The notes: a model not told the origin generated them from the letters alone. Shown: positions 2,490 to 20,904, counted from the stretch's first letter. The stretch: DNA of 32,130 nucleotides from an uncultured archaeon (GCA_963817525.1 CAWFOU010000004.1:1-32130), one strand, 5' to 3'. Program-made: numbers and translations.

Positions 2490-5400
2490 CTATGTGTGCT
2501 GGAACGTCATGAAGACGGCGTTCACATAGTCCGTGACCTCGATCGTATAGTAGCCCGCTGTGGCCGTCGGGACCGAGAAGGTGACGCCTGACGGGATGTT
2601 GCCCGACGCGGTCGTCGTGAAGGTGGCCAGCGTCGTCATCTGTCCTTCCGAGTTTATCCAGCCTACTATCGCCGTGGAGCTGGCATCGAAGTCGCACGGG
2701 GCAGTGCAGCTCACGGTGACCGTGGCTCCTGTCGAGCCCGCCGTTGGGGTGGTGTAGGCGTTTGACTCGGTGATTATACCATACGGGTAGGGGACCGTCT
2801 CTCCCATGAGGGTCCCGTCGCTGAAAATGCCTGTGAGGGCGAAGTACGCCTCGAAGGGCGTCCCGTAGTTGTTCCCGAAAGGCTGCGTCGTGGAGCCCAG
2901 GGCAGCCGTGGCGGCGAAGTAGATGGTCGTCGGGACGTTCCACGCGAGCGTCAGGAACTGTCCACCTGTGGTTGAGGTATAGGCGTTCACGGTCGTCGAG
3001 CCAGGGTTCAGTCCGTCGATGATGTAGTAGTGGGCCTGGATGTAGCCTAGGTCGTACGTGTTGCTCTCCTTTGAGCCTATGGCTATCTCGCTCTGCGGCC
3101 AGAGGGTGAGCGCGCGATGCTGCGAGTCCACGTTGGTGAAGGTCGCCTCCCAGACCAGCACCGCGCTCGCGGGCACCCCCATGGTGGGGTAGCCTCCCAC
3201 CTGGATTCCGCTCTGCGGGTTGAACGGGGTGCTGAAGGACATCGAGGCCTCCGCCCAAGGGGTGGAGGTGCCCAAGGTGATCGGGACGGTGTTCGCCGCG
3301 CCTCCGTCGGAGTTCGACGAGTCGTACTCGCTGCACCCCTCAACCGAGCTGCAGGTGCCGCCGAGCGTGAAACCGGTCCCGGCTGTGAAGGCGTTAGAAC
3401 TGGAAGCGCCCTCGGCGTTCCCGACGATGAACGAGTCGGTGGCGGGGGTGTAGGCCGTGACGGCGGCGCCCGTCGAACCCGTGGAAGAGCTTCCTGTCGA
3501 GGTCAGAAAGTTCGACGTGGTGTACCCGTTGATCTCGTAGATCGAGACGGAGCCGGCCACCGTGGATGCGAACGCCGTCGTTATCGTGTTAGACCCCGAG
3601 GTCCCCGCGGTGGCATACCAGATGTACGAGTAGTAGTCGCTGACCACCGGCGAGAGCACCACGGCTGCTTCTACCCACGGGGCAGAGGGGCTGATCGACA
3701 TCGGGACCATGGTCGCGGTGCCAACGCCCGTCTGGTACTCTCCACAGCCGCTCACCGAGCTGCAGCTTCCCGAGAGCGTGTAGCCGCTTCCTGCCGTGTA
3801 GGTCGTCGAGGTGGTCTCCGTGTCTCCAACCACGACTGAGCCTGCAAGGGTCGGGGTGACCGATGTGACCGACGTGGAGGCCCCGCTCGCCGAAGAGCTT
3901 CCGGTCGAGGTGAGTAGTCCGGTCGCGGTCACCCCGCTTATCTCATAGATGGAGACCGATCCCGCGACCGTCGAGCCGAAGCTGGCGCTTATCGTGTCCG
4001 CGCCCGAGCTCGCGGCGGTCGCGTAATAGATGTACGAGTAGTAAGTGCTCGCGGAGAGAGGAGCGAAGGACATCGCCGCCTCCACCCACGCCGTCGACGC
4101 GCTGAGTGTGAAGAGCGTCTGGGTGGCCGAGCCCAGCCCGGTCTCGTATTCGTTGCACCCCTCAGCGGCGTCGCTCGCGTCGCACCCACCGCTCCCGCTT
4201 GCTATCGTGGTGTAGCCCGAGCCCACCGTGTACTTCGTCGAGGCCGAGCCCGTCTCCACGTTCCCCAGAACGAAAGAGTTCGAGCTCGGCGTGAAGGAGC
4301 TCACGCCGGCAGAAGTGGAGCCCGCAGAGGAGCTGCCGGTCGACGATTGCGTACTGCTAGTCGAGTACCCTGAGATCTCGTAAATCGAGATGGTGCCCGC
4401 CACTGTGGCCGCGAAGGAGGCCGTTATGGTGTCCGCCCCGGAACTCTGCGCCGTGCCGTACCAGATGTAGGAGTAGTAGGTCTTGGGAAGGGGCGCGAAA
4501 GATATCGCCGCCTCCACCCAGGCAGGGGACGTGCCGAGGTTCGTAGAGACCGTCGTCGAGCCTGACGATGCCGTCTCGTACTCGCTGCAACCGTAGACGG
4601 TATTGCAGGTCGCCACCAGGGTATAGCCGCCTCCGTTGCTGAACGTCGTTCCTGCGTTAGTCTCCGCGTTCCCGATGACTACCGAGCCCGAAGTCGGCGT
4701 GAACGACGTGACCGTCGCCGTGTTCGAGCCTGCGCTCGAACTCCCCGTGGATGTGAGCGCCCCGGTCGTGGTCACACCGCTAAACTCGTACATCGAGACC
4801 GAGCCGGTCACGGCCGAAGAGAAGCTAGCGGAGATCGTGTCTGCTCCAGAGGTCGCCGCGGTCGCGTACCATACGTAAGAGTAGTACGTCGTGGCCGCTT
4901 CGACTGCGTCGGTTACCTCCGCACCGTATGCGTCGCTGCCGCCGCACGATGTGGCCAGGTTCGTCTGGGTTGAGGTGACTGTCTTGTATGCCACGTACTC
5001 GTCGATCGAGTAGCCGTTGTTGGCTTCCACGGACGTCCAGCCACTGGGATTGCTCCCAGCGTAGGCCGAGCAAGCGTAGATCAGCATGTCGTCCGCGTTG
5101 CTGGTGGACATTGTCGTGGAGGGGTTGCTGGTAGCCGCGTTGGTGGCGGGGACGGAAGTGTTCGGGTCGAACGGGCTGGCCGTGTTAGCCCCGCTTATCC
5201 CGAAGACCGTGATCCAGACCTCCTGGTTCGCCGTCCCGGAGAGCGTCGCGGTTATCGTGGCGGAGCTGAGGGTGGAAGACGCTACCGCGTACCACTCGTC
5301 CACGTTCTGGTAGTACTCGGCGCCATCCTCGACCGCGCCGGTTTCCCTGCTGTGCCAGGTGAGGCCCCCTCCAGAGATGCTCGAGACCGTCGGGGGAGCG

Positions 5401-6920
5401 GTCGGCTCCTGAGTGACCGGGCTTACGTACGCGATTATGACGTCGTTCGTGTGGCTCGTCGTGAGGGTCGCAGCTATGGAGGAGGCGCTCCCTGACTCCG
5501 CGGAGTTAGAGCCGTCTATAGCCAAGCTGCCCGAGCCCCCTACTTGGACTGAGTTCGAAGCCCCGAGGGTGAACGTGTCGCCCAGGGTGTCCGTGGGCGT
5601 GGAGGGCGGGCTCTGGCCATACCATCCGAGTCCAAAGACGAGCGTGTTCCCTGCCGTGACAGAAGATGAGTACGCAAGCGAGCACGTCGCCGAGTTGCAG
5701 TTCGAGTTATAGCGGTCTTGGACCAGCGCAGGGGTGAAGGTGCCGGTCTGGACAGAGTTCGAAGCTCCGAGGGTGAACGTGTCGCCCAGGGTGTCCGTGG
5801 GCGTGGAGGGCGGGCTCTGGCCATACCATCCGAGGCTGTAGAGCAAGGTGTTCCCAGCCGTCACCGAAGATCCGTACGCGAGCCCGCAAGACGCCGAGTT
5901 GCAGTTCGAGGTGTACTTGTCCTGGACCAGCGCGGGCGTACCAGGGTTTACGCCGACCGACTGAGACGCGCCCAGCGTGAACGTATCCCCACGGGTGTCG
6001 GTAGGCGCGGACGGAGGACTCTGATTGGCCCACCCGACCGCATAGACGAGCGTGTGACCAGCGGTGACAGAGGAGGTGAAGGCCAGCCCGCACGTCGCCG
6101 CGTTGCAGTTCGAGGTGTACTTGTCCTGGACCAGGGCGGGCGAAGCGGAGACCGCCACCGATGACGACGTTCCTAGATGGAACACGTCGCCGCGGGTGTC
6201 TGTCGGAACGCCCGATGGGGGGGCGTTGTTTGCCCACCCCACCGCATCGACCAGGATGTTCCCTGCCGTGACCGAAGAGGAGTAAGCGAGGGCGCAATTT
6301 TGGGAGTTGCAGTTGGCGACGTAGTTCTTCTGCACAAGGGAGGAGGCCTCAGGGATGAGCTGGACCCACTTTAGGTTGTCTAGGTTCACCGACACCGCCT
6401 GGGTAGACCCGGTGTCGGAGGCCGGCTCCGGGTAGGTCTGGGTATAGGTGTTCCCGCGCGCCGTGAGCACCTTCAGGGTGTCCGTCGTCCCCGGGGAGTA
6501 GACATATCCGGTGTCGATGGTGGAAGACCCTTTGCCGGCATCGATCGTCTCCCAAAGGGTGGGAGTGGAGTTGCTGCACCCGGACCCCGCCGGGAAGCCG
6601 ACGCCGTCGCACTTTAGCAGGGCGCCCGTCGAGGAGAGGACGAGGACGGCTGTCATGTTCACAGTGATCGAGGAGGTATCGTTTGCGAAGAACCCAACGT
6701 CTCCGTCGGGTTCGAGCAGGGTGGCGACGGTGAGGCTCTCGGTCTGCCTCCCCTGGATCTTGTTGGCCGCGGCGAGTAGGCTCGTGGAATAAGCCGCGTT
6801 CTGCGAGTTCACGTAGATGTAGTATGACGTCCCGACCGAGAACATTATCGCGAATATGATGACGATGGCGACGATGCCGGCTATCCCTCTCCTGGCTTTC
6901 GCCCCGCGCCCCATCTTCAT
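2490..6920 (-). CDS. Giant type IV pilin-like adhesin with nested repeat domains (1476 aa)
   Basis: Class III signal peptide ARRG|IAGIVAIVIIFAIMF. Ser/Thr/Gly-rich beta protein with four ~68-aa and four ~140-aa repeats around a central domain, paired cysteines, an Ig-like C-terminus and no C-terminal TM anchor. Confidence 0.85.
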   Translation of the reverse strand: MKMGRGAKARRGIAGIVAIVIIFAIMFSVGTSYYIYVNSQNAAYSTSLLAAANKIQGRQTESLTVATLLEPDGDVGFFANDTSSITVNMTAVLVLSSTGALLKCDGVGFPAGSGCSNSTPTLWETIDAGKGSSTIDTGYVYSPGTTDTLKVLTARGNTYTQTYPEPASDTGSTQAVSVNLDNLKWVQLIPEASSLVQKNYVANCNSQNCALAYSSSVTAGNILVDAVGWANNAPPSGVPTDTRGDVFHLGTSSSVAVSASPALVQDKYTSNCNAATCGLAFTSSVTAGHTLVYAVGWANQSPPSAPTDTRGDTFTLGASQSVGVNPGTPALVQDKYTSNCNSASCGLAYGSSVTAGNTLLYSLGWYGQSPPSTPTDTLGDTFTLGASNSVQTGTFTPALVQDRYNSNCNSATCSLAYSSSVTAGNTLVFGLGWYGQSPPSTPTDTLGDTFTLGASNSVQVGGSGSLAIDGSNSAESGSASSIAATLTTSHTNDVIIAYVSPVTQEPTAPPTVSSISGGGLTWHSRETGAVEDGAEYYQNVDEWYAVASSTLSSATITATLSGTANQEVWITVFGISGANTASPFDPNTSVPATNAATSNPSTTMSTSNADDMLIYACSAYAGSNPSGWTSVEANNGYSIDEYVAYKTVTSTQTNLATSCGGSDAYGAEVTDAVEAATTYYSYVWYATAATSGADTISASFSSAVTGSVSMYEFSGVTTTGALTSTGSSSAGSNTATVTSFTPTSGSVVIGNAETNAGTTFSNGGGYTLVATCNTVYGCSEYETASSGSTTVSTNLGTSPAWVEAAISFAPLPKTYYSYIWYGTAQSSGADTITASFAATVAGTISIYEISGYSTSSTQSSTGSSSAGSTSAGVSSFTPSSNSFVLGNVETGSASTKYTVGSGYTTIASGSGGCDASDAAEGCNEYETGLGSATQTLFTLSASTAWVEAAMSFAPLSASTYYSYIYYATAASSGADTISASFGSTVAGSVSIYEISGVTATGLLTSTGSSSASGASTSVTSVTPTLAGSVVVGDTETTSTTYTAGSGYTLSGSCSSVSGCGEYQTGVGTATMVPMSISPSAPWVEAAVVLSPVVSDYYSYIWYATAGTSGSNTITTAFASTVAGSVSIYEINGYTTSNFLTSTGSSSTGSTGAAVTAYTPATDSFIVGNAEGASSSNAFTAGTGFTLGGTCSSVEGCSEYDSSNSDGGAANTVPITLGTSTPWAEASMSFSTPFNPQSGIQVGGYPTMGVPASAVLVWEATFTNVDSQHRALTLWPQSEIAIGSKESNTYDLGYIQAHYYIIDGLNPGSTTVNAYTSTTGGQFLTLAWNVPTTIYFAATAALGSTTQPFGNNYGTPFEAYFALTGIFSDGTLMGETVPYPYGIITESNAYTTPTAGSTGATVTVSCTAPCDFDASSTAIVGWINSEGQMTTLATFTTTASGNIPSGVTFSVPTATAGYYTIEVTDYVNAVFMTFQHT
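3222..4892 (-). repeat. Four intragenic ~140-aa 'B' repeats (YYSY.WYATA..SGADTI...WVEAA.SF.P)
   Basis: Units begin near 4892, 4484, 4052 and 3642 in the translation of 2490..6920. Confidence 0.85.
5540..6341 (-). repeat. Four intragenic ~68-aa 'A' repeats (PALVQ..Y..NCN...C.LAY.SSVTAG..L...GW...P...PTDT.GD.F.LG.S.SV)
   Basis: Units begin near 6341, 6140, 5936 and 5732 (period about 204 nt). Positions 5551-5630 and 5755-5834 match at 79/80 nt. Confidence 0.88.
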
Positions 6921-6949: not shown

Positions 6950-9900
6950 CTACGTGTGCTGGAACGTCATGAAGACCGAGTTGGTGTAGTCGGTGACCAC
7001 GATCGTGTAGTAGCCCGCCGTGGCGGTCGGGACCTGGAAGGTGACCCCGGACGGGATGTTGCCCGACCCGGTCATCGTAAAGGTGGTCAACGCCGTCATC
7101 TGCCCCGCCGAGTTCAACCAGCCGACGGCCGCCTTCGCGCTGTCGGTGAAGTCGCACGGCGAAGTGCAGCTCACGGTGACCGTGGCGCCTGTCGAGCCCG
7201 CTGTGGGCGTCGTGTAGGCGTTGGCGTCGGTGATTATGCCGTAGGGATACGGGATGGTCTCCCCGAACAGGGTCCCGTCGCTCATTATGCCGGAAAGGGC
7301 GAAGTACGCTTCGAAGGGGGTGAGGACGTTGGTCCCGAACGCCTGAGTCGTGGAGCCGAGGGCCGCAGTGGAAGCGAAGTAGAGGGTCGTCGGGATGTTG
7401 TAGGCGAGCGTGATGAAGGCGCTGGTCGAGTATGCGTTCACCGTCGTCGACCCGGAGTTCAGCCCGGAGATGAGGTAGTAATGGGCCTGCTGGTAGTCGA
7501 TGTCGAACCCGTCGAACTCGGCCGAGCCAATCGCCATCTCTGTCTGTGGCCAGATGGTGATCGCCCTGTGCAGCGGGTCGACGTTTGTGAACGTCACCTC
7601 CCATACGATGTCAGCGCCGCTCGGCACACCCATGGTGGGGTAGCCTCCCACCTGGATTCCGCTCTGAGGGTTGAACGGCGTGCTGAAGGACATCGAGGCC
7701 TCCACCCATGGGGTCGAGGCGCCCAAGGTGATCGGGACGGTGTTCGCCGCGCCTCCGTCGGAGTTCGACGCGTCGTACTCGCTGCACCCGCCTACCGAGC
7801 TGCACGTCCCGCCGAGGGTGAAGCCGCTGGTCGCGGTGAATGTAGTCGTGCCGGAAGCGCCCTCGGCGTTCCCGACGATGAACGAGTCGGTGGCGGGGGT
7901 GTAGGAGGTGACAGCCGCCGTCGTGGAGCCTGTCGACGAGCTGCCTGTCGACGACAAAGCACCCGAGATGGTGTAGCCGGTTATCTCGTAGATCGAGACC
8001 GAGGCGGCCACGGTCGAGCCGAACGCGGTCGTAATGGTGTCGGAGCCGGAGGTCCCCACGGTCGCGTACCAGAAATATGAGTAGTAGTTTGTGATTATGG
8101 GAGCGAAGATGACCGCCGCCTCCACCCATGGTTCGGAGGGGCTGATGGACATCGGGACAGTGGTGGCCGTCCCCACGCCCGTCTGGTACTCCCCGCAGCC
8201 CGTGACGGTGCTACAGCTGCCTGAGAGCGTGTAGCCGCTCCCGGCCGTGTAGGTGGTCGCAGGGGTCTCTGAATTCCCTATCACCACGGACGCGGCCAGG
8301 GTGGGAGTCACAGACGAAACGGAGGTGGTTGACTGGGCGGACGCCGAGCTCCCTGTCGAAGTGAGGAGGCCGGTCGCGGTCACCCCGCTTATCTCGTATA
8401 TCGAGACGGAGCCCGCGACCGTAGACCCGAAGCTGGCGGTTATGGTGTCCGCGCCCGAGCTCGCGGCGGTCGCGTAATAGATGTACGAGTAATAGGTGAT
8501 ACTCGTCAGCGGGGCAAAGGAGGCAGCAACATCCGCCCACGGGGTGGATGCGCTGAGGGTGAAAGGAGTGGTGGTCGCGGAGCCCAGGCCGAGCTCGTAT
8601 TCGCCGCAGCCCTGTGAGGCGTCACTTGCGTCACAGCCCCCGCTCCCGCTGGCGACCGTCGTGTATCCCGACCCGACGGTGTACCTGGTCGAGGTGGACC
8701 CCGTCTCCACGTTGCCCACCGCGAACGAGTTCGAGCTGGGCGTGAAAGAGCTCACGCTGGCAGCAGTCGAGCCTGCGGTCGAGCTGCCGCTCGAGTAAAG
8801 AACCCCGGAGGTAGAGTACCCGGTTATCTCGTAGATGGACACTGAGCCTGTGACCGCCGCGTTGAAGGTCGCGGTAATCGTGTCCGAACCACTACTCGAC
8901 GCTGTCGCATACCAGATTTCTGACTCGTAGAGGGTCGAGCCGCTCAAGGCCGACTGGGACACGGACAGGGTGAAGGAGTCACCGAGCGAGTCGGTCACGG
9001 AGGTCGGCGACCCTGTGCCCAATGAGGTCGTCCCGAACGAGGTCGATGGCATGGCGCCGTTGGGTGGATAGGCTCGGGCGCGCATGAAGTTGTACTCCAC
9101 CGAGATGGGATAGCTGGACGTCGTGCCGCTGACCTGGCCTAGGTAGAGGTTTGACGCCCCGCTGATCGGGTTGTTCGAGACCGTCCCGCTGTACCCTCCC
9201 GTCGAGGAGTAGAACTGGGGGGCCACGAACGAGCTCCACGACGACGCGCCCGTACCTGTGTACGTCAGGGTCGCGTAAAGCCAACCCGCAGTCGCCGTCC
9301 CCACGCCGTTCTGGTCGGTGGTGACCGTCCCGCCGCTCTCGTAGTCCTGGTCGAAATAATCGCCGTTGTATCCGCAGTTCCCGCTTATCGCGTTCGTTAT
9401 GCTCGCGGCTGCCACGTTGTTCACGAGGCCGACCGCGCCCGTATCCGTGCCTGGGCTGGAGCAGCTCGCGCCTGAGAAGCTCGATTCGACTATCATGGCC
9501 GCGTTGGTCAGCGCTGCGCTGAACGAGAAGACCGGGTTATTCCCGTTATAGCCTGTCGCCTTTATCGCGTTTATCGTCGAGCCCCCTGGACCTGCGACCC
9601 CCGTGGCCTTGGCTATGGTGTACCCTGAATACACGGAGAAGCTCGTCGTAGCCGTGTTCCCGTTGAAGTAGGCGTTGAAGACGTTGGCTCCGTTGTCGTA
9701 CTGGGCGTACGTCGAGGACAGGTTGGGCGCCTCGCCCCAGTAGTTGTCGTCGAAGTTCACTCCCGTTCCCTCGAAGACCATGTATATCGTGAGGGTTCCT
9801 CCAGCCGAGATCGCCGAGGTCAGTTTGACCCAGGCCGTCGCCGAAGTAGAGGTCGACCCGCTGGTGCTGCAGGCGCTGGAGCACGACTCCAGCCAGGCGT

Positions 9901-12507
9901 AGAGGGGCGAATTGCACGCGTCGTCGGCGCAGAAGCGGACGTTCCCGAGGTTGGTCGCCTCATAAGAAGTGTACTGGGCAGGGTCCCAGGTCACCATCTG
10001 CTGGAAGGTCGCCGGGGTCGCCGATTGCGTGGCCGCCTGATCGCGTCGCCTATCTCTCCCCAAGAAGCGCTCCCGGAGGCCGTGAAGCTAGGGGTCTGGG
10101 ATCCGGTGGCGGTGACGAGCTTGTACTGAAGTGCGGAGTCCTGGGTCGTGCAGCAGAGCATGGTCGTATATCCGGACGCCCCCGCGGTTATCGTGTGGGA
10201 TGCGTCGGCCACCGTCCCTATGATGAGGTCGTCTGCATTGGTCGTCGTGAACGTCACGCTGGGGGCAGCGTTGGTGCCCGTCGCGGTCGGCGCCGTGGTC
10301 AGGTGAGGGTCGAAGGGCGAGGCGGTGTTCGCACCCGCGGCACCTATCTCCATGAGCCTGAGGTTCGTCGTGCTGTGGAAACCGGGGTTAGAGTTCACCG
10401 TGATGGTGTCCGAGGAGAGCGTGCTGGTCGCGATAGCGTAATACGTGTAGATGTCGTAGTTGCCCGAGGAGCTTATGGTCTGCCGTTGCGTCCACGCGAG
10501 GCCGGCGCTGTCGGAGATGCTCGAGAGGATGTTCCCTCCCGTGCTGTCAGTTATTGAGACATAGATGACGTCGTTGGTGTAAGAGGTCGAGACGGAGAGG
10601 GTGCAAGAGGTGGACGCGTCGCACTCGTTCGAGTTGGTCCCGTCGACCAGGGGTCCCGAGGCGCACGACGAGGAGGTCCCGACGATGGCGTCCGCGAGCA
10701 TCGCCCAGTCGTTGGATGAGGACGACAGGTCGTACGATATGGCGTCGCCGCTGGTAGTGGAGGAGACCTGGTCGTAGTCCGAGGAACCCTCGGCCTCGCT
10801 CAGGCTCCCGGCCGTGAGGACGTTTGCGATGTTGGTGAACCCCGTGGGGAAGCTGTTCACGGCCCCCGGCGTCTGGCTCACGGCCAGTCCGTCGATCAGC
10901 ATGTCGTTGCTGTTCGAGGTGGACTGGGTGACGCTCGGGGCGTTCGAGGTTCCGAATGCTGTTGGGTTTGCGCCGGAGTTGGAGTCGAACGGAGAAGACG
11001 TGTTCGCTCCCGAGATGCCGAATGCGATGACCGTGAACCTGTCGGAAGAGGTCGTGGTTACCGTGATCGTCCCCGAGAACGTGGATGAAGCTACTGCGTA
11101 CCACTCCTCAACGTCGGCGTAATAGTCCGGACTGACAAAGTTGGTCGCTGCGGCTCTCTTTGCGAACGATAGCCCGGAAGCCGTCACCGTCGAGACGATG
11201 TTGCTGGTGGTGGATCCTCCGCTGCCATCCGAAAGGGACGCGATGACCACTATGAGGTCGTTTGTGTGCGACGTGGTCAGCGTCCCTGTGGTCTGCGTGT
11301 TTGTAGCAGAGCCTCCAGAGCCAGCCGTGGTGTACCCGTCCAGTGCGAGCGACGAGATCGGGAGCTGGCAGTTGCTGACGGTCACCGGGACGTAGGTGTA
11401 TGGCTGCGTCGCGGGCCATCCCAGCCCGAGGACCAGGGTGTTCCCTGCCGTCACCGACGAGCTGTAGGCGAGGGCGCACGTGGCGGCGTTGCAGTTCGCC
11501 AGATACCTGTGCTGCACCAAGGCGGGCGTCGGGGGGTTCCACGTTACCGACTGGGACGCGCCCAGAGCGAAGGTGTCACCCCTGGTGTCGGTGGGGGCGG
11601 AGGGAGGGGCCTGGTTGGCCCATCCTATGGAATAGACCAGCTCGTGCCCCGCGGTGACAGACGAAGTAAATGCAAGGCCGCACGACGCCGCGTTGCAGTT
11701 AGAGGTGTACTTGTTCTGGACCAGCGCGGGAGAAGCAGAGACCGCCACGGAAGACGAAGCGCCGAGGCTGAAGAGGTCGCCGCGCGTGTCTGTCGGCACG
11801 CCCGAGGGCGGGGCGTTGTTGGCCCACCCTTCAGCATCGACCAGGATGTTTCCGGCCGTGACAGAAGAGGAGTATGCGAGGGCGCAGTTCTGGGAGTTGC
11901 AGTTGGCGACGTAGTTCTTCTGCACCAAGGAAGACGCCTCGGGGACCAGCTGGATCCACCTCAGGTTGTCGAGGTTCACCGTCACCGACTGGCTGGACCC
12001 GGATTGGGAGGCCGGCTCCGGGTAGCTCGCGGCATAGTTGTTGCCGCGCGCAGTTAGCACCTTGACCGTGTCGGTGGTGCCAGCGACGTAGATGTACCCG
12101 GTGTCGAAGGTGCCGGACCCGTCGCCCGCGTTCACTACCGCCCATAGGGAGGGCGTCGAGTTGCCGCACCCCGCCCCAGCCGGGAATCCGATCCCGTCGC
12201 ACTTTAGCAGGGCGCCCGTCGATGAGATGACAAGCACCGCCGTCATGTTGACCGTGACCGAAGAGGTGTTGTTGACGTAGAAGCCCACATCTCCGTCTGA
12301 CTTTAGGGTCGTGGTGACCGAGAGGCTCTCCTGCAGGGTCCCCTGGACCTTGTTGGTCGCTTTGAGGAGGCTCGAGACGTAGCTCGCGTTCTCAGAGCCG
12401 ATGAAGATGAAGTACGAAGTCCCGACGGTGAAGAGGATCGCGAACATTATCACCGTCGCGACGATGCCTGCGATGGCCCTCCTGGAGTTGCGCCTCTCGA
12501 ACTTCAA
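6950..12507 (-). CDS. Giant type IV pilin-like adhesin, paralog of 2490..6920, with a DUF2341-like insert; one frameshift at ~10039 (about 1852 aa if repaired)
   Basis: ORF 9991..12507 has a class III signal (SRRA|IAGIVATVIMF) and the same N-terminus as the paralog. ORF 6950..10063 has the same C-terminus (..VFMTFQHT). Adding one base at 10039 gives a continuous ..GDAIQAATQSATPATFQQ.. Confidence 0.83.
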
Positions 12508-14824: not shown

Positions 14825-17457
14825 TTACTCGAACGACGTGTCGAATTCCTGGTCGCCGTCGGCTTTGCCGCCTTTCCTTTTCTTGACCAGGAAGACCGCG
14901 GCGACTGCTCCGCCGGCTCCTCCGACCGGAACCAAGAGCAGGGGGAAGGTCGTGAGTTCTTGAGTCAAACTAGCCTTAGATTTCTCCTCCTTGGCCGATG
15001 ATGATGGGGGGGCGGTCACCTGGACCGTGAAGTTAAGGGTCCGCGAGAGGAGGCCTCCCGGCGCGATCACGGCGGTAATCACCACCGAGCCAGTATGGGC
15101 TGGATGGAAGATCGCCACAGACGAGCCTGCCGTATCAGTCGTATCGTTGACTGCCGGCACGCCCGTGGGTTGGACGGCTATCGTCGACCTTGCGAGTTTC
15201 GTGCTCGTCGAAGACGCGGTGCTCGCCGTCGTGGTGCTTGATGAATTCGTGGGCCTGGGGTGACTATTATGAGTCCTCCGCTGGAAGCTTTCCAGTCGAC
15301 CGCAGTGCCTGCAAGAGGCGACCCGTCGAGAGCGACGTTCACGGAAATGACCGACGTTTCGTTCGTGAAGATGCTCGCAGGACCTCCAGTCATTGTCGCC
15401 CCGCCGGGAAAGGAGAGGAAATTGACCACAAGCGAGGTCGTCGAAAGTCCCGGCGTTGAGAGCGTGAGCGTCGTCCCGCCCGGTACTTTGGCCTCTAGAG
15501 GCAACGAAGCGTAATCCTGCCCAACCCCTATGACCGCCGTGAGTACCTTCGAAATCACCGTGCTGTTGGACGAAGTAATCGTGATATTCATCGGGGCCCT
15601 CGCTCGCGCTGGGTTGCCAGATGCGTCCACAAGTTGGACGGCCATGAGGGGCAGTTGGCGCGAAGTGCTTGGGGTGAACATGATCGTGTTGTCGTTCGGG
15701 GCGAATGCCGAAAGAGCGGACGGGGCAGGGATGACCGTTGACAGGTCGACAGACGAGCTTGCGTATCCGCTCGTGAACGAGGAGACCAGCGCGGTTACGT
15801 TGGTGCTTCCTTGCAGGATCCCTGCAGTCACGTTTACAACGGCAAACGTCTGACCCGCGGGGATTACGGCGTCGGCGACGCTAACGATTTGGTCTTGTGA
15901 TGAGGAAAGACCTACAGGAATGTCCGACGCTGCGACGGCCGGAGAGCCGGACGCGTCCTCCAGCGAGAGTTCTAGGGCCGGATGCGTTGCTCCGTCTGCG
16001 GGCAGGGGGGTCGAGATAGCGCTTACAATGACTTGCGAAGGTACCGCACCATAGGTTGCGAGCGAGGTCTCAGCCGGCAGGACGTTTTGCCCCGACGCAG
16101 TGAGAGTGGTTGTTCCGACTTGATAAGTCGAGGTGAAGGTTACCGCAGCCCAGTTTTGCCCCGTTGGAATGACAAAATTGATGCTTGTGAAATTCCCAAC
16201 CCCCGCTACCGAGGACGTGAGGGTCACCTCAGTGGGCCCGGTGGCGTTAACGGCGGGGGTGCCGCCGGGATTTTGAAGGGAGACGACAACCGAACTATAG
16301 GGACCGTGGTCGGCGAGCACGGGATTTGGTCCCGCGAAAATTTCAAGCTGGCAGGTTGTCGCTCCTCCTGATGTGCACAAGGCGGGGCTCACAAAGGACG
16401 GAGGGGAAATCGTGATGAGAGTAGAGCTTGATTGCAGGCCGGGCGAGCTTGCCGTGATGGTTGCCGTCCCCGCCGTGGCGGAGGTGACCGTGAAGGTTGC
16501 GAACGCTGAGATGCTACCTTCGGAGATTGTTGCGGTTTCGTTTGCATTTACGACCGCCAAGTCGGAGCTCCTGATTTGGACCTGAATGTTGCGAGTCGCC
16601 AAAGTGGGGTTCCCGTTCAGGTCGGTCAGTGCCACGACCAGGCGACCTACGCACGAGGTAACTTCCGATGAGCAAGCGACCATGTCGCCCGGTTGTGCTT
16701 GCAACTTGAGTTCAAGGGGAGGAGACCCTAAGACTGAAATCGTCGCCGTGCCCGAAGCGAATCCGGGCGCGGAAGCGGTGATTAGTGCCGAGCCAGGGAC
16801 AAAGCCGCTGGTGTAGTTTATCTCTTCCAGATATTCCCCTTGTTTCATTGCAGTAGTTGCTGCAGTCACGTTAACAACATTCGTGTTAGAAGAGTACAGC
16901 GAAATCGGGACGTCCGCAATGGCCTTCGCCGGTAGTCCTACATCGTCCTCGAGCTGAAGAATCAGGTAGCCCGTGCTCGCCGCACTAGCTGGGACCGTGT
17001 CCGGTACGGCCGTTATCACCAACTGTGTAGGATATCCGACCGCGATTACGGTAGTAACAGGAGTGGAAGCAGTTTTCAGGCCAGTAGACGTCGCGGTCAC
17101 CGTCGTCACCCCGGCTGTGTGGGTCGTCGTGAAGTTCGCTATAGCGTAGGTCTGACCTTCGGGAATCTCGACTTGCCCTGTGACGACTCCAACGTTCTCT
17201 TGAGACGAAGTCAGCGATACGTTGATTCCAGTAGGGGCGACAGTGGGTTCGCCGTTTGAGCCGACCACTGACACCACGACCGCCGGATAGGTGTTGTTGT
17301 CCGCGGGTAGACTCGGCGGTATAGTAGACATTGCGAGCGCAGATGGTATCAGAGACTGCGAAGCCGCCGCATGACCGGCGTTCAAGGGAAGTGCGCCGAC
17401 GATCGTAAGACCCAATAATAGGACGCCGATTCCTAGCACACGAGTCTTATTTCGCAA
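14825..17457 (-). CDS. Membrane-anchored surface protein with tandem Ig-like repeats; one frameshift at ~15257-15260 (about 877 aa if repaired)
   Basis: Sec-type signal peptide, then about six ~100-aa repeats (P..LPAD...G.P..A...I.V.L.SS...G...ITAS..G). Adding one base joins a Ser/Thr linker and ORF 14825..15160, which ends in a TM helix plus KKRK tail. Confidence 0.78.
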
Positions 17458-17551: not shown

Positions 17552-19285
17552 CTAGAGCGGATGGTGGAGGATAACAGGCGCAAGTGCAACCATCATCGCA
17601 CCCACTATGACCAATGCCAGTGCATGCTTGAAGCCGTCAGCTACGCTGCCGCCGCCCATCTTGCCCGCGACGAATCCAATGACCCATCCGTCGAAGATCG
17701 AGGCAGTCAAGAGTGATTGGACGGTGGCGGGGGTGATCGTGATCAGATTGTTCGCCGTTGCGGCCGTCTCGCCAGCGAACTTTATCGGCGTGGAGAGGAA
17801 GTAGACCATCATGAAGGTCGTCATCACTAGGAGTATCGCCGCCATGTAGACCACGAATATATAAGACCTCAACGCCGCTCGCTTGTCGGCCTCGATCTCG
17901 TTCACCTTCCTCGTGAAGTCGGCCATCTGGGAAAAGCTGTTTACCGTGCCGCCTCCGACGTCGACGACCTCCACCATCAGTGTCCCAATGGCCATCGTGA
18001 TCCAGCTGTCGACCGATTCAGCAAACGTCTTGATGACCTTCACTATGGGTAGACCCCAAGAGATCTGCGACCCCATGGTCCTGATTGACTTGGATAGACG
18101 TCCGTAATTCTTCGACCCGAGCTGCTCGATGCTCCCCTCGGGCGAAAGGCCTATCTTTCGTCCCTCTGCCACGTCTCTTATGAAGTCAGGCAGCGCCTTT
18201 TCCAGACCCGTTCGCTCACGAGACTGCTGGAAGGCGACAATCGACGGGATTATCACGATCGAGCCGAGCGCCACGGAGACGTGAAGGCTGAGCTGCAGGG
18301 GGAGCGGGATCACGAACAACGCGAGCCCGATGGGCATGCAGGCCAACAGCACATAGTATGGGCGTTTGTTGAAGTAGGGCTGCTTGGGCTGCGTCCCGTC
18401 GATTATGAAGATGAACAGTCCAGACAGGCCAGGGACGCAAAGGTAGGAGAAGAGGAAGAGGGTCTGAAGTCCCGAGTTATTGTGGGCAATCACGCCCTCC
18501 AGTTGGAAGAGGCTGAAGAGTGTGATCCCCATTACCGCGGTCACTGTCAGGTATGCCTCGGCCAGAGTTCCAACGGAGTCGGTGATGCGCCTGACCTTCG
18601 ATGTACCCTGGTCGAGCGTCTCCTTGAGCTTGTTGTTAACATAGTTCTTTACGTCGCCTCCGACCTTCAATACGGTCGTGTAGCCGTAGAGAAACTCCTG
18701 GAACGATTTGTTCGGCATGTATTTTGCGGCGGTCTCGAAGGCGGTGATGGGGTCGGTTCCGAAGACATCTATGTCGACCAGGATCCTCTTAGCCTCCTTG
18801 GCGGAGGCGGGGAAGACCTTCCCCATACCGGATATCCTCCTCAGCGTGGAGATTGGAGAGACCCCTCCACCAGAGAGGACGCCCAAGAAGCCGATCAGCA
18901 TGGGCAGTTCGTTTTCCAAGGCCTCCGAACGGCCCAACTGAGAGATCTTGGCAGCGTTCCAAACTATGACGAACACTATCGGCGGCGCGACTACGACCAT
19001 GAACAAGAATATGATGTGCAGCATCAGGCCCAGAACTACACAAATCGCCACGGGGATAATGGAGAGGACAGTCGTGAAGAGGGCCAGTGAGACGAGCGCT
19101 TCCGGTGTGATTCGCAGGTTGGACTTCAATATCTCGTCCCTCATCTGGGGGGACGAAGCCGCGAATTTCTTTCCCTGCTTTCCGAACATCTTGTAGGCGG
19201 TTGACACCATCTTGTCGAAGAAGGTGAGCTTCGAGCCCTCTTTTGACGGGCGCGCCGTTTGGAGGGTGGCGGCGACCTGGCTCAA
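17552..19285 (-). CDS. Type IV pilus membrane platform protein (TadC/FlaJ-like, T2SS F family)
   Basis: Two T2SSF-like halves (LENELP...SGGGVSP; LEKALPDFIRDVAEG..IGLS; GFVAGKMG.GS...GFKH) with multiple TM helices; overlaps the stop of the ATPase gene. Confidence 0.92.
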   Translation of the reverse strand: MSQVAATLQTARPSKEGSKLTFFDKMVSTAYKMFGKQGKKFAASSPQMRDEILKSNLRITPEALVSLALFTTVLSIIPVAICVVLGLMLHIIFLFMVVVAPPIVFVIVWNAAKISQLGRSEALENELPMLIGFLGVLSGGGVSPISTLRRISGMGKVFPASAKEAKRILVDIDVFGTDPITAFETAAKYMPNKSFQEFLYGYTTVLKVGGDVKNYVNNKLKETLDQGTSKVRRITDSVGTLAEAYLTVTAVMGITLFSLFQLEGVIAHNNSGLQTLFLFSYLCVPGLSGLFIFIIDGTQPKQPYFNKRPYYVLLACMPIGLALFVIPLPLQLSLHVSVALGSIVIIPSIVAFQQSRERTGLEKALPDFIRDVAEGRKIGLSPEGSIEQLGSKNYGRLSKSIRTMGSQISWGLPIVKVIKTFAESVDSWITMAIGTLMVEVVDVGGGTVNSFSQMADFTRKVNEIEADKRAALRSYIFVVYMAAILLVMTTFMMVYFLSTPIKFAGETAATANNLITITPATVQSLLTASIFDGWVIGFVAGKMGGGSVADGFKHALALVIVGAMMVALAPVILHHPL

Positions 19286-20904
19286 AGCTTGAACCCTTCG
19301 CGCATCTCCGCCTGCATAACGAGCCCGGTCTTCCCCAGGTCCTCGCGAGCGCGCTCAAAGATCTCGCTAGAGTGGGCCCTGTACTCCTCGAAGATGAGTG
19401 AGAGCTCCCTGAAGTTGCGTATCTCCCTCTGCTGCGCCCACCTGAGGACGATGCCCCTCCTCTCGATTTCTGACATCAAGTCCGGTATCGTAGTGCCGGT
19501 ATCTCTCGCTAGCCTCGCCAGCTTCACGCTTGTCTTCATCGGCGAAGCCAGCTGCTTGTCGCTGCCGGGGTCCCACTTGAACATGCGCACATAGCTGCCC
19601 ACGCTGACGACCTCGTCCACCGAGAGGACCCGCCTCATCGTCCTGAAGCCGCCGCCGGCAATGGGGATGGCTATCCTCCTTACGGTGAACACAAGGTCGA
19701 GGAACGGAATGAAAGACGGGGGAACGTCCATGGGCTTCGAGGTGAGGCGCTGGATGGCTGACGTGACGTCATCCGCGTGGAGAGTGCAGAGGCCTCCGTG
19801 CCCCGTGCTGATCGCCTGGAAGAGGACGTAGGCTTCTTCGCCCCTAACCTCTCCCACCACCAGGATGTCCGGCCTCATTCTCATGGTTGCCTTGACCAAC
19901 TGGAAGAGGCCGACCTCTCCGCTCGTGTCGTCCCCTGTACCGTAGCTCTCGCGGGAGAGTAGTGCGGACCAGTTCTGGTGGGCGATGTTAATCTCTTGGA
20001 CTTCCTCAATCGTGACGATCTTAGAGTTCATCCTCGTGAGTGTCAAGAGGGCGTTGAGCAGTGTCGTCTTCCCAGAGCCCGTGGACCCGGCGACGATGGC
20101 GGTCGCCCGGTTCTCCATCAGGAGCCACACGTAGGCCGCGAGGTTGTGGTCGATGACGTTCATATTCATCATATCGATGATGGTCAAAGGATCCTCACGG
20201 AACTTTCTGATGGTGAGCGTGCCGCCGTAGGGCGAGATCTCCCTCCTGTAGGTCGCGGCCAAGCGGTGCCTCCCCGGAAGCGTGCCCTGCACTATAGGGA
20301 AGGCGGTCGAGACGTGCTTTCCGGCCATGTGCGCGAGCCTGGCGATTGTGTTGTCCAGTTCCTCGTCGTGGAGGAAGTTCAGGTTGGTCTCTATGTTGTC
20401 GTATCTCCTGTGAAAGATGAAAAGCGGTTTGCCGACGCCGTCAACCGAGATGTCCTCAATCTGGGTATCCCGCATGACTCCGTCGATGACCCCGAAGCCT
20501 ACCAGGTCTCTTTCCGCAAAGTAATTGATCTTCGGCCAAGAGAGTTGAGACGCCTTTATCGAGTATTTGGTTACCAGCCGCTTGGCTTGCTCCAGGAAGT
20601 AGGCTCGCGGGTCAATCTCAGACCTAGGGACGGACAGCTCGCTTTCGAGCGTCTCGAGAAGGTAGGTGTAAATCGACGCTTCTCTTTGAGACAATACTAC
20701 CTCGTCGACGAAATATTTCTTTGTCCCGCTTCCGGGGTCTTCAGCGATTACGGCGTAAGCGAACGGGGCATTCAGTGGATATTTGTCAATGACCTTCCAG
20801 GACGGAGAGAGGGGGGCCCCTACGAATGGATAGCGAGTGACCGCTTTGGCCGACTTGGACCCGGGGGCATTCGGGCCTTTCTTTCCGAACGGCAGGTTAA
20901 CCAT
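19282..20904 (-). CDS. Type II/IV secretion ATPase (FlaI/TadA/VirB11 family), pilus assembly motor
   Basis: Walker A GSTGSGKTT, Asp box TIEEVQEI, Walker B MRPDILVVGEVRG, His box TGHGGLCTLH and TIRKF motif. Confidence 0.96.
   Translation of the reverse strand: MVNLPFGKKGPNAPGSKSAKAVTRYPFVGAPLSPSWKVIDKYPLNAPFAYAVIAEDPGSGTKKYFVDEVVLSQREASIYTYLLETLESELSVPRSEIDPRAYFLEQAKRLVTKYSIKASQLSWPKINYFAERDLVGFGVIDGVMRDTQIEDISVDGVGKPLFIFHRRYDNIETNLNFLHDEELDNTIARLAHMAGKHVSTAFPIVQGTLPGRHRLAATYRREISPYGGTLTIRKFREDPLTIIDMMNMNVIDHNLAAYVWLLMENRATAIVAGSTGSGKTTLLNALLTLTRMNSKIVTIEEVQEINIAHQNWSALLSRESYGTGDDTSGEVGLFQLVKATMRMRPDILVVGEVRGEEAYVLFQAISTGHGGLCTLHADDVTSAIQRLTSKPMDVPPSFIPFLDLVFTVRRIAIPIAGGGFRTMRRVLSVDEVVSVGSYVRMFKWDPGSDKQLASPMKTSVKLARLARDTGTTIPDLMSEIERRGIVLRWAQQREIRNFRELSLIFEEYRAHSSEIFERAREDLGKTGLVMQAEMREGFKL

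Follow-up and report, generated by a model that had tools for sequence, protein, structure and literature searches.

Large proteins with DUF2341 domains that are encoded in archaeal type IV pilus (T4P) loci have been proposed to be tip adhesins (Makarova, Koonin & Albers 2016, PMC4858521), and the DUF2341 gene of the epd pilus locus of M. maripaludis was hit in a transformation screen (PMC10133366). Here we describe a gene at positions 6950..12507 on the minus strand of a 32,130-nucleotide (nt) stretch of DNA from an uncultured soil archaeon (GCA_963817525.1 CAWFOU010000004.1:1-32130), the whole of which is called the window in the following. Its product resembles the archaeal DUF2341 proteins, as far as the accessible parts of these and the other sources cited below describe them, in being a large, secreted protein from a T4P-type locus with a DUF2341-homologous domain, and an adhesin role may be proposed by analogy. 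Unlike in those proteins, this domain remains below every Pfam score, lies as an insert within a host domain, and is interrupted in turn by two more domains. A nested architecture in archaeal pilins was not found in the literature searched; the supplementary tables of PMC4858521 may list relatives.

Three further systems are comparable in part. Modular pilins of S. sanguinis include PilB with a vWA module and PilC with a concanavalin A-like lectin module (bioRxiv 10.1101/2021.01.27.428410). They share with the window protein a concanavalin-like binding module on a pilin-type N-terminus, which is expected at the filament tip, but their modules are appended end to end and the largest one quoted has 860 residues, compared to about 1852 residues nested five deep here; moreover, the window protein is archaeal and its pilin module lacks confirmation by a hidden Markov model (HMM). 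In RrgA, the tip adhesin of the pneumococcal sortase pilus, domain D3 is inserted into D2 and D2/D3 into D1 (PMC5333627). The split-host stalk domains and the binding domain at the far end are common to both proteins, and the covalent intramolecular staples of RrgA, which are isopeptide bonds, have a counterpart in a candidate disulfide in the window protein. The pilus type and the folds are unrelated, however, RrgA has three levels rather than five, and its hosts are not copies of one domain. Recursive insertion within one family, with up to six nested levels, was described for the Si3 region of the β′ subunit of cyanobacterial RNA polymerase (PMC13114784). There, too, one domain family was repeatedly inserted into itself to a comparable depth, but in a cytoplasmic enzyme with a different fold, whereas the hosts in the window protein lack the conserved polar residues of the guest and a foreign lectin domain is interposed. 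In that survey, deeper nesting is cited only for the cyanobacterial RNA polymerase (six levels); the five levels of the window protein are conserved, occur in a putative surface adhesin, and combine self-insertion with a foreign lectin domain. The protein thus combines known kinds, the modular pilin or adhesin and the nested insertion, and is notable for the depth of nesting, the division of labor between hosts and guests, and the large family to which its core domains belong.

In the window the gene is divided into two overlapping open reading frames (ORFs), ORF1 (9991-12507, minus strand, 838 amino acids [aa]) and ORF2 (6950-10063, minus strand, 1037 aa), and is followed by a gene for a 1476-aa paralogue (2490-6920, minus strand). 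We consider it likely that ORF1 and ORF2 represent one gene for a pilin-like modular surface protein of roughly 1852 residues which was built by recursive domain insertion in a T4P-like locus, and we document its gene structure, insertion order, conservation, and fold classes below. At the sequence level, a β-sandwich domain of roughly 205 residues is present three times as a split host, consisting of an A third, a guest, and B two-thirds, each copy being nested in the previous one. A loop of the innermost host (A3) contains a concanavalin-like lectin domain related to DUF2341 proteins, and the β1-β2 loop of the latter contains two tandem unsplit domains of the scaffold type, called cores, resulting in five levels in all. 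The order along the chain is pilin-like N-terminus, A1, A2, A3a, first lectin strand, core1, core2, remainder of the lectin-type domain, A3b continuous with a B repeat, two further B repeats, and C-terminal domain, with the following positions:

11932..12507, minus strand: N-terminal region (aa 1-192), in which a basic stretch and about 22 hydrophobic residues precede a globular part; putative class III signal peptide with a pilin module
11734..11931, minus strand: A1, N-terminal third of scaffold domain 1, the outermost one (ORF1 aa 193-257)
11527..11730, minus strand: A2, N-terminal third of scaffold domain 2 (ORF1 aa 260-327)
11404..11526, minus strand: A3a, first 41 residues of A repeat 3 (ORF1 aa 328-369), broken at about repeat position 42
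11371..11403, minus strand: displaced first β-strand (PYTYVPVTVSN) of the lectin-type (DUF2341-related) domain, which matches HMM positions 3-13 once the insert is excised
11368..11370, minus strand: Cys380, just before core1
10669..11352, minus strand: core1, a complete, uninterrupted domain (ORF1 aa 386-613) with all invariant polar residues kept
10663..10665, minus strand: Cys615, located in the linker between core1 and core2 and possibly disulfide-bonded to Cys380
10039..10653, minus strand: core2, the second complete core domain (ORF1 aa 619-823)
10038..10039: frame break, where the window lacks one base (G on the plus strand, C on the coding strand) that is present in metagenome contigs
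9020..10039, minus strand: remainder of the lectin-type domain (ORF2 aa 9-348)
8930..9013, minus strand: A3b, where A repeat 3 continues and leads directly into the first B repeat
8495..8929, minus strand: B1′, C-terminal two-thirds of scaffold domain 3, partner of A3 (ORF2 aa 379-523)
8090..8494, minus strand: B2′, putative partner of A2 (ORF2 aa 524-656)
7676..8086, minus strand: B3′, putative partner of A1 (ORF2 aa 660-794)
6950..7675, minus strand: C-terminal domain of about 240 aa, shared with the paralogue (paralogue copy at 2490-3224, minus strand)
6950..12507, minus strand: whole gene, 1852 aa when the extra base of the metagenome contigs is included

A first-pass annotation of the sequence had proposed that the third A repeat is interrupted by a DUF2341-like domain, which in turn is interrupted by two tandem core-type domains. 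All landmarks named there were found on the minus strand, with coordinates right within a few bases. A repeat 3 stops at GLGWPATQ (nt about 11404), which corresponds to position 42 of the 68-aa repeat, and according to blastp its positions 43-61 resume in ORF2 at aa 353-371 with SPTSVTDSLGDSF (nt about 9010). As had also been stated, the insertion loop is not the one used in the paralogue: the break lies at about A repeat position 42 here and at the A/B junction there.

The split of the lectin-type domain was analyzed with an HMM built from 80 full-length homologous domains, in which, as in the paralogues, the first strand adjoins the remainder without interruption; P0022 and P0033 were left out, being taken as belonging to the same genome or population. 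The model matched ORF2 with 446.4 bits (E 2.6e-137) at positions 15-347 (ORF2 aa 12-348) and the read-through protein with 445.6 bits at positions 12-347, whereas ORF1 alone gave -29 bits and no aligned positions. When the 448-residue insert was excised from the read-through protein, the score was 453.7 bits and positions 3-347 were matched in one unbroken stretch. The gain over ORF2 is modest, about 7 bits, because the displaced piece comprises only 11 residues. Uninterrupted relatives of the domain exist in the same genome, which contains three further copies of roughly 342 aa. In two giant paralogues the domain occupies the same A3 loop without interruption (...GLGWPSSQ-QYSYVPITITNSQSSATPNPFQQ... 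and ...GLGWPSSQ-QYSYVPITITNSQSSATPNPFQQMVTW...). The improved match after core excision and these paralogues bear out the placement of the cores inside the lectin-type domain inside A3. In all eight of the aligned paralogues and orthologues, the strand register right behind the A3 break is identical. The third copy lies directly behind the N-terminal hydrophobic segment of a small pilin-like protein (G000 C1:558918-559943, locus L004), which may be the stand-alone form of the lectin module.

The assignment to DUF2341 stood in part. The DUF2341 family has a concanavalin/LamG-like jelly-roll fold. A database search yielded 278 homologues of the lectin-type domain (188-599 aa), and PF10102 (DUF2341) was matched by 37 of 73 aligned homologues at E<=0.001 (best 9.9e-10); the homologues carrying PF10102 are 36-44% identical to the lectin-type domain over about 97% of its length. 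The homology was therefore upheld, but the domain of the window itself reaches no Pfam score. Similarly, the motifs YVPxTxxN and FQQ, which had been cited as the contiguous start of DUF2341-type domains, are joined in other organisms (ITN.Q..ATP..FQQ is contiguous in the eight fetched homologues with this stretch), but the Pfam model, which has 84 positions, begins after the cited strands and covers the stretch behind the FQQ strand only. The uninterrupted paralogue domain, which is 72% identical, was modeled with AlphaFold2 (predicted local distance difference test [pLDDT] 92.6); the model shows a strand at residues 7-17, a loop at 18-26, and a strand at 27-33, and by this model the cores sit in the β1-β2 surface loop of the lectin domain. 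A Foldseek search with the same model gave 195 PDB matches at E<=1e-3, with legume lectins and a related alpha-amylase inhibitor at the top and GH43 C-terminal domains and alginate/glucuronan lyases among the further matches (template modeling [TM] score on the target 0.45-0.56). As judged from the model, the fold of the lectin-type domain is a concanavalin-like jelly roll.

The A and B repeats were mapped by blastp with the repeat units of the paralogue, which itself is a five-level nest of one domain family comprising A1-A4, an unsplit core (aa 465-678), and B1-B4, without a lectin domain. The aa positions obtained were as follows:

Paralogue: A at 194-258, 261-328, 329-390, and 397-460; core at 470-678; B at 679-811, 815-959, 960-1092, and 1096-1230
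ORF1: A at 193-257, 260-327, and 328-369; cores at about 395-614 and about 623-823; no B
ORF2: A (positions 43-61) at 353-371; no core; B at 379-523, 524-656, and 660-794

In ORF2 the resumed A repeat leads directly into the first B repeat. This first B is closest to the second B of the paralogue (73%), in agreement with what a missing inner A4-core-B1 unit would predict. When B was compared with the core, hhalign aligned it to core positions 85-226 (probability 91.9%, E 7e-7), and the A and B halves joined in nested order were collinear with the core over 179 columns (probability 95.7%, E 9.7e-9). On the core model, the lectin insertion site maps to loop 48-58 and the A/B junction to loop 78-84. 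The A3b piece lies below the HMM cut-off in the window protein, where it was placed by blastp, and in the orthologue of G012, where it was read from the junction; in the other orthologues it was recovered as A 39/45-67.

A structure prediction with the separated pieces spoke for their reunion. For ORF1 aa 328-385 together with ORF2 aa 9-523, the predicted complex reached an ipSAE of 0.87 (0.88, 0.87, and 0.85 in three runs), whereas the best of three controls was 0.00; in a calibration of the tool, the mark was reached by 58 of 80 solved complexes and by 2 of 110 mismatched pairs. The contacts agreed between runs to at least 92%, with a partner pLDDT of at least 81. They were predicted to the expected partners: residues 47-50 of the strand contacted residues 83-87 and 333-336 of the lectin domain, and residues 30-32 of A3a contacted B residues 375-378 and 403-404 (numbered on chain 1, ORF2 aa 9-523). 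A3a is thus predicted to pack on A3b/B, and the displaced strand to pack inside the lectin domain.

When G000 and 60 related genomes (61 in all) were searched with ORF1 aa 328-823, some part of the query was matched in 22, including 17 of 22 from the same genus. Three genomes of the genus (G009, G012, and G018) contain the architecture of the window protein in unbroken ORFs of 1871-2220 aa, and a fourth genome contains a variant:

G009, ORF of 1882 aa: A, A, A3a, core, core, lectin (about positions 16-349), A3b, B, B, B
G012, ORF of 1871 aa: order as in G009
G018 (L017, C2:559000-573000), ORF of 2220 aa: order as in G009, with a second complete lectin domain in tandem directly behind the split one
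G020 (L019, C58:34000-50000), ORF of 2170 aa: six levels; A3 contains a whole lectin domain, and A4 contains a second one that in turn encloses one core

Common to the junctions are the motif Y.YVP.TITNCQL, a cysteine in the core1-core2 linker, and the motif GDAI..AP..ATP..FQ. Beside the 2170-aa gene of G020 lie ORFs of 709 and 735 aa that look like a paralogue-type gene split by a frame change. The genome of the window also has a second copy of the locus with two giant pilin genes, on contig C1 at about 488000-503000 (L021). It encodes an intact 1818-aa protein with the lectin domain in A3 plus A4-core-B, and a paralogue-like gene that changes frame twice, near C1:491832/491804 and near 491269/491212.

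Several observations speak against the architecture proposed here. The lectin-type domain of the window has no Pfam match (ORF2 matched no family at E<=1, and the uninterrupted paralogue none at E<=0.001), and it does not reach the PF10102 gathering cut-off of 23.4 bits. Pilin_N, arch_flag_Nterm, and other pilin or class III signal-peptide models were not matched at E<=10 by ORF1 or the paralogue, and when the first 80 residues of each giant protein were scanned against Pfam at E<=10, the matches did not exceed chance level; the label "pilin" therefore rests on the appearance of the N-terminus and on the locus. The ipSAE of the complex is the confidence of the model itself, obtained with alignments supplied by us. 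Compared with the core by itself, A gave an alignment in the right order (positions 24-80) that was not significant (E 0.013, probability 3.4%), and the nesting of levels 1 and 2 (A1/B3 and A2/B2) is deduced from the number and order of the repeats. Finally, both contigs that restore the reading frame are shallow (depth about 2.3-2.5), and come from one study, which possibly includes the source sample of the window.

The weak alignment of A with the core, the indirect evidence for levels 1 and 2, and the fact that tandem arrays are a common way of building adhesin stalks would fit an alternative in which A and B are independent tandem repeat families, three small A and three larger B repeats, and only the lectin-type domain is truly split. 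We regard this as improbable. The number of A repeats equals that of B repeats in all seven intact proteins mapped, irrespective of whether there are three or four, the unsplit core is covered collinearly by A and B combined, and where the core is absent the last A joins the first B without a break. In addition, A3a is predicted to be in extensive contact with B residues 368-410 and others, and the distance of about 795 residues between the 41-residue A3a and its 28-residue continuation cannot reasonably be explained unless the two pieces reunite in the fold. A misassembly in which repeats were collapsed or chimerically joined could likewise be considered as the origin of the cores-in-lectin arrangement, as the region is highly repetitive, the genome contains two paralogous loci and several frame errors, and the metagenome bin has a contamination of 8.75%. 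However, the same order and the same junction motifs are present in intact ORFs of three other genomes, short-read contigs span the core2/lectin junction, and the cores are only 35-43% identical to the core of the paralogue and hence are not collapsed copies. Since order and junction motifs are conserved in other genomes, misassembly is excluded for practical purposes.

More weight has to be given to the frame break between ORF1 and ORF2, which overlap at 9991-10063. From ORF1 to ORF2 the reading frame shifts by -1 (= +2), and the shift must occur between GDAI and QSATP. Contigs from soil-metagenome runs, four of one study containing parts of the region, were aligned with positions 9300-10800. 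The site is bridged by two contigs, X1 (9846-10107) and X2 (9827-10072), and the only difference of both from the window is an extra G behind plus-strand position 10038. A third contig, X3, stops at 10039 and has no bearing on the extra base. With this base the coding strand reads ATC CAG GCG and the junction becomes ...GDAI-QAATQSATPATFQQ... in a single frame of 1852 aa. The repaired junction agrees with those of the three orthologues (GDAIQAAP.., GDAIEGAP.., and GDAVEAAP..; general pattern GDAI(Q/E)(A/G)AP...ATP..FQ). Two proteins from a 7254-nt contig, P0033 and P0121, are 98-100% identical to parts of the gene product but have different local frame errors, which suggests a second, indel-prone assembly of the same population. 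Programmed frameshifting was rejected, as there is no slippery heptamer at the site and the contigs simply have one base more. The frameshift might instead be real in the strain, leaving either a pseudogene or a truncated ORF1 product with an unsecreted ORF2; the truncated product would consist of the two cores and one strand of the lectin domain behind the pilin-like N-terminus, A1, A2, and half of A3. The sequence of the window is itself broken, the paralogous giant gene on contig C1 also shifts frame twice, so that gene decay may occur, and a coexisting strain is a possible source of the shallow contigs. We nevertheless consider a real frameshift unlikely, as the two bridging contigs with the extra base are otherwise identical to the window, the other assembly points to an indel-prone consensus, and past the break ORF2 remains open for 1037 codons, its individual domains sharing 45-76% identity with the orthologues. 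Because the contigs restore the frame, the orthologue junctions agree, and the second assembly has different frame errors, the break is probably a consensus error of the assembly rather than the mark of a dead gene. The possibility raised at the outset that the two ORFs are separate proteins is unlikely in view of the bridging contigs and the three orthologues that are single ORFs. By these sequence comparisons ORF1 and ORF2 are one gene, and as gene callers will split the two ORFs, they should be merged in the annotation.

The two core domains that had been recognized in tandem were confirmed, and both contain TS.TND and GANT.SPFD. In blastp comparisons with the core of the paralogue, core1 and core2 gave E values of 5e-32 and 6e-27. 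An HMM of the core was built from three cores and scored core1 and core2 with 319 and 304 bits, which are self-matches, as both were part of the model. An alignment of 22 cores has 10 invariant columns (D11, T33, G121, N123, P127, D129, T151, D156, D227, and A228). In all seven host A+B units the invariant polar residues are replaced, while G66, G121, G177, and Y199 stay. Because the hosts lack the polar residues that the cores keep, the hosts look like scaffolds and the cores like functional copies. No part of the protein varies more between orthologues than the cores, which are 33-41% identical, compared to 42-81% for the other parts. In a tree of the 22 cores, core2 of the window groups with the core-in-lectin core of G020 (support 100/99), core1 is unplaced, and the two cores of G009 group together and with the paralogue-type core of G020. 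A simple positional orthology of the cores was unsupported by this tree. The cores appear to have been duplicated or exchanged between positions and genes.

A profile search with the core in 1.84 billion representatives gave 6062 matches at E<=0.001, 3199 at E<=1e-10, and 1006 at E<=1e-30, and members are often present in several copies within a single giant protein. None of 10 sampled members matched any Pfam family. The core model (pLDDT 88.8, 15 strands) had no match in the PDB at E<=1e-3 (best 3.4e-2, TM score <=0.26), so that the core represents a large family without a Pfam match whose model resembles no solved structure. Among predicted phage proteins (BFVD), 57 matches at E<=1e-3 were found (best 7.9e-9, TM score 0.71-0.73), several of which are named "minor tail protein" while others are uncharacterized Caudovirales proteins, and an ESM Atlas look-up returned unnamed viral clusters with a score of 0.91. 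The resemblance to these predicted phage structures is one of the core fold only; none of three cores matched PHROGs by sequence.

The cysteines flanking the first core, which had been suggested to staple the insertion, are present as Cys380 and Cys615. The joined protein contains 28 cysteines, 26 of which lie 1-29 residues from a neighboring cysteine, and only Cys380 and Cys615, which bracket core1, are left over. The pair is conserved in all four two-core proteins and absent from the one-core form of G020. A Cys380-Cys615 disulfide thus probably closes core1 into a loop of its own.

The minus strand of the window carries a type IV pilus-like operon. Genes for a secretion ATPase and a platform protein are located upstream of the giant genes on the same strand, which agrees with a T4P context:

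19282-20904, minus strand: T2SSE-type secretion ATPase (family match E 1e-37)
17552-19285, minus strand: T2SSF-type platform protein (family match E 2e-20)
15178-17457, minus strand: 759-aa protein, encoded between the genes for the platform protein and the pilin-like proteins, with sub-threshold Ig-like matches only (Big_1 and Glyco_hydro2_C5)
After the 759-aa gene and neighboring ORF1, minus strand: 235-aa gene with weak Pilin_N and TIGR02537 matches (E 0.03)

Whole-protein scans of ORF1, ORF2, and the paralogue against Pfam and NCBIfam revealed no family at E<=1. At the start of both ORF1 and the paralogue, a basic stretch precedes about 22 hydrophobic residues, and the N-terminal region of ORF1 (aa 1-192) is 63-69% identical to that of the orthologues. 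In both giant proteins the last B is followed by the C-terminal domain, which shares 53-76% identity with its counterparts in the orthologues and matches no family; the nested geometry would place it close to the N-terminal module. Judged by its gene content, the locus is archaeal type IV pilus-like and encodes a pilin-like modular surface protein.

In the proposed structure, the chain would run outward via A1-A2-A3a to the distal end, where the lectin domain and the two cores would be formed, and come back via B1-B2-B3. The protein would be processed like a pilin and presented on the pilus, the host copies that have lost the polar residues would act as a stalk, and the cores and the lectin domain would be the ligand-binding head, most likely for glycans. 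By analogy with the systems described above, we infer a pilus-borne adhesin with such a head. As a more tentative extension, which we put forward as a possibility less probable than its opposite, the stalk may be a self-inserted β-sandwich without a binding site and the tip a set of exchangeable cassettes that keep the site and are swapped or duplicated between genes and loci, forming a combinatorial adhesin system. Equally speculative is the proposal, based on structural models, that these tip cassettes (cores, with or without the lectin domain) share their fold with phage minor-tail proteins. If these proposals are true, strains would differ in the set of heads that they present on a common scaffold, pilus-tip adhesins would regularly be built by nested insertion, which would then be no mere curiosity, and the core family of roughly 6000 clusters would be a new class of binding modules common to archaeal pili and phage tails. 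With host copies that keep the fold but lose the polar site and guests that keep the site, the protein offers a clean natural case of split-host/portable-guest evolution, and the locus points to a possible attachment of the uncultured soil archaea of this genus to surfaces or polymers.

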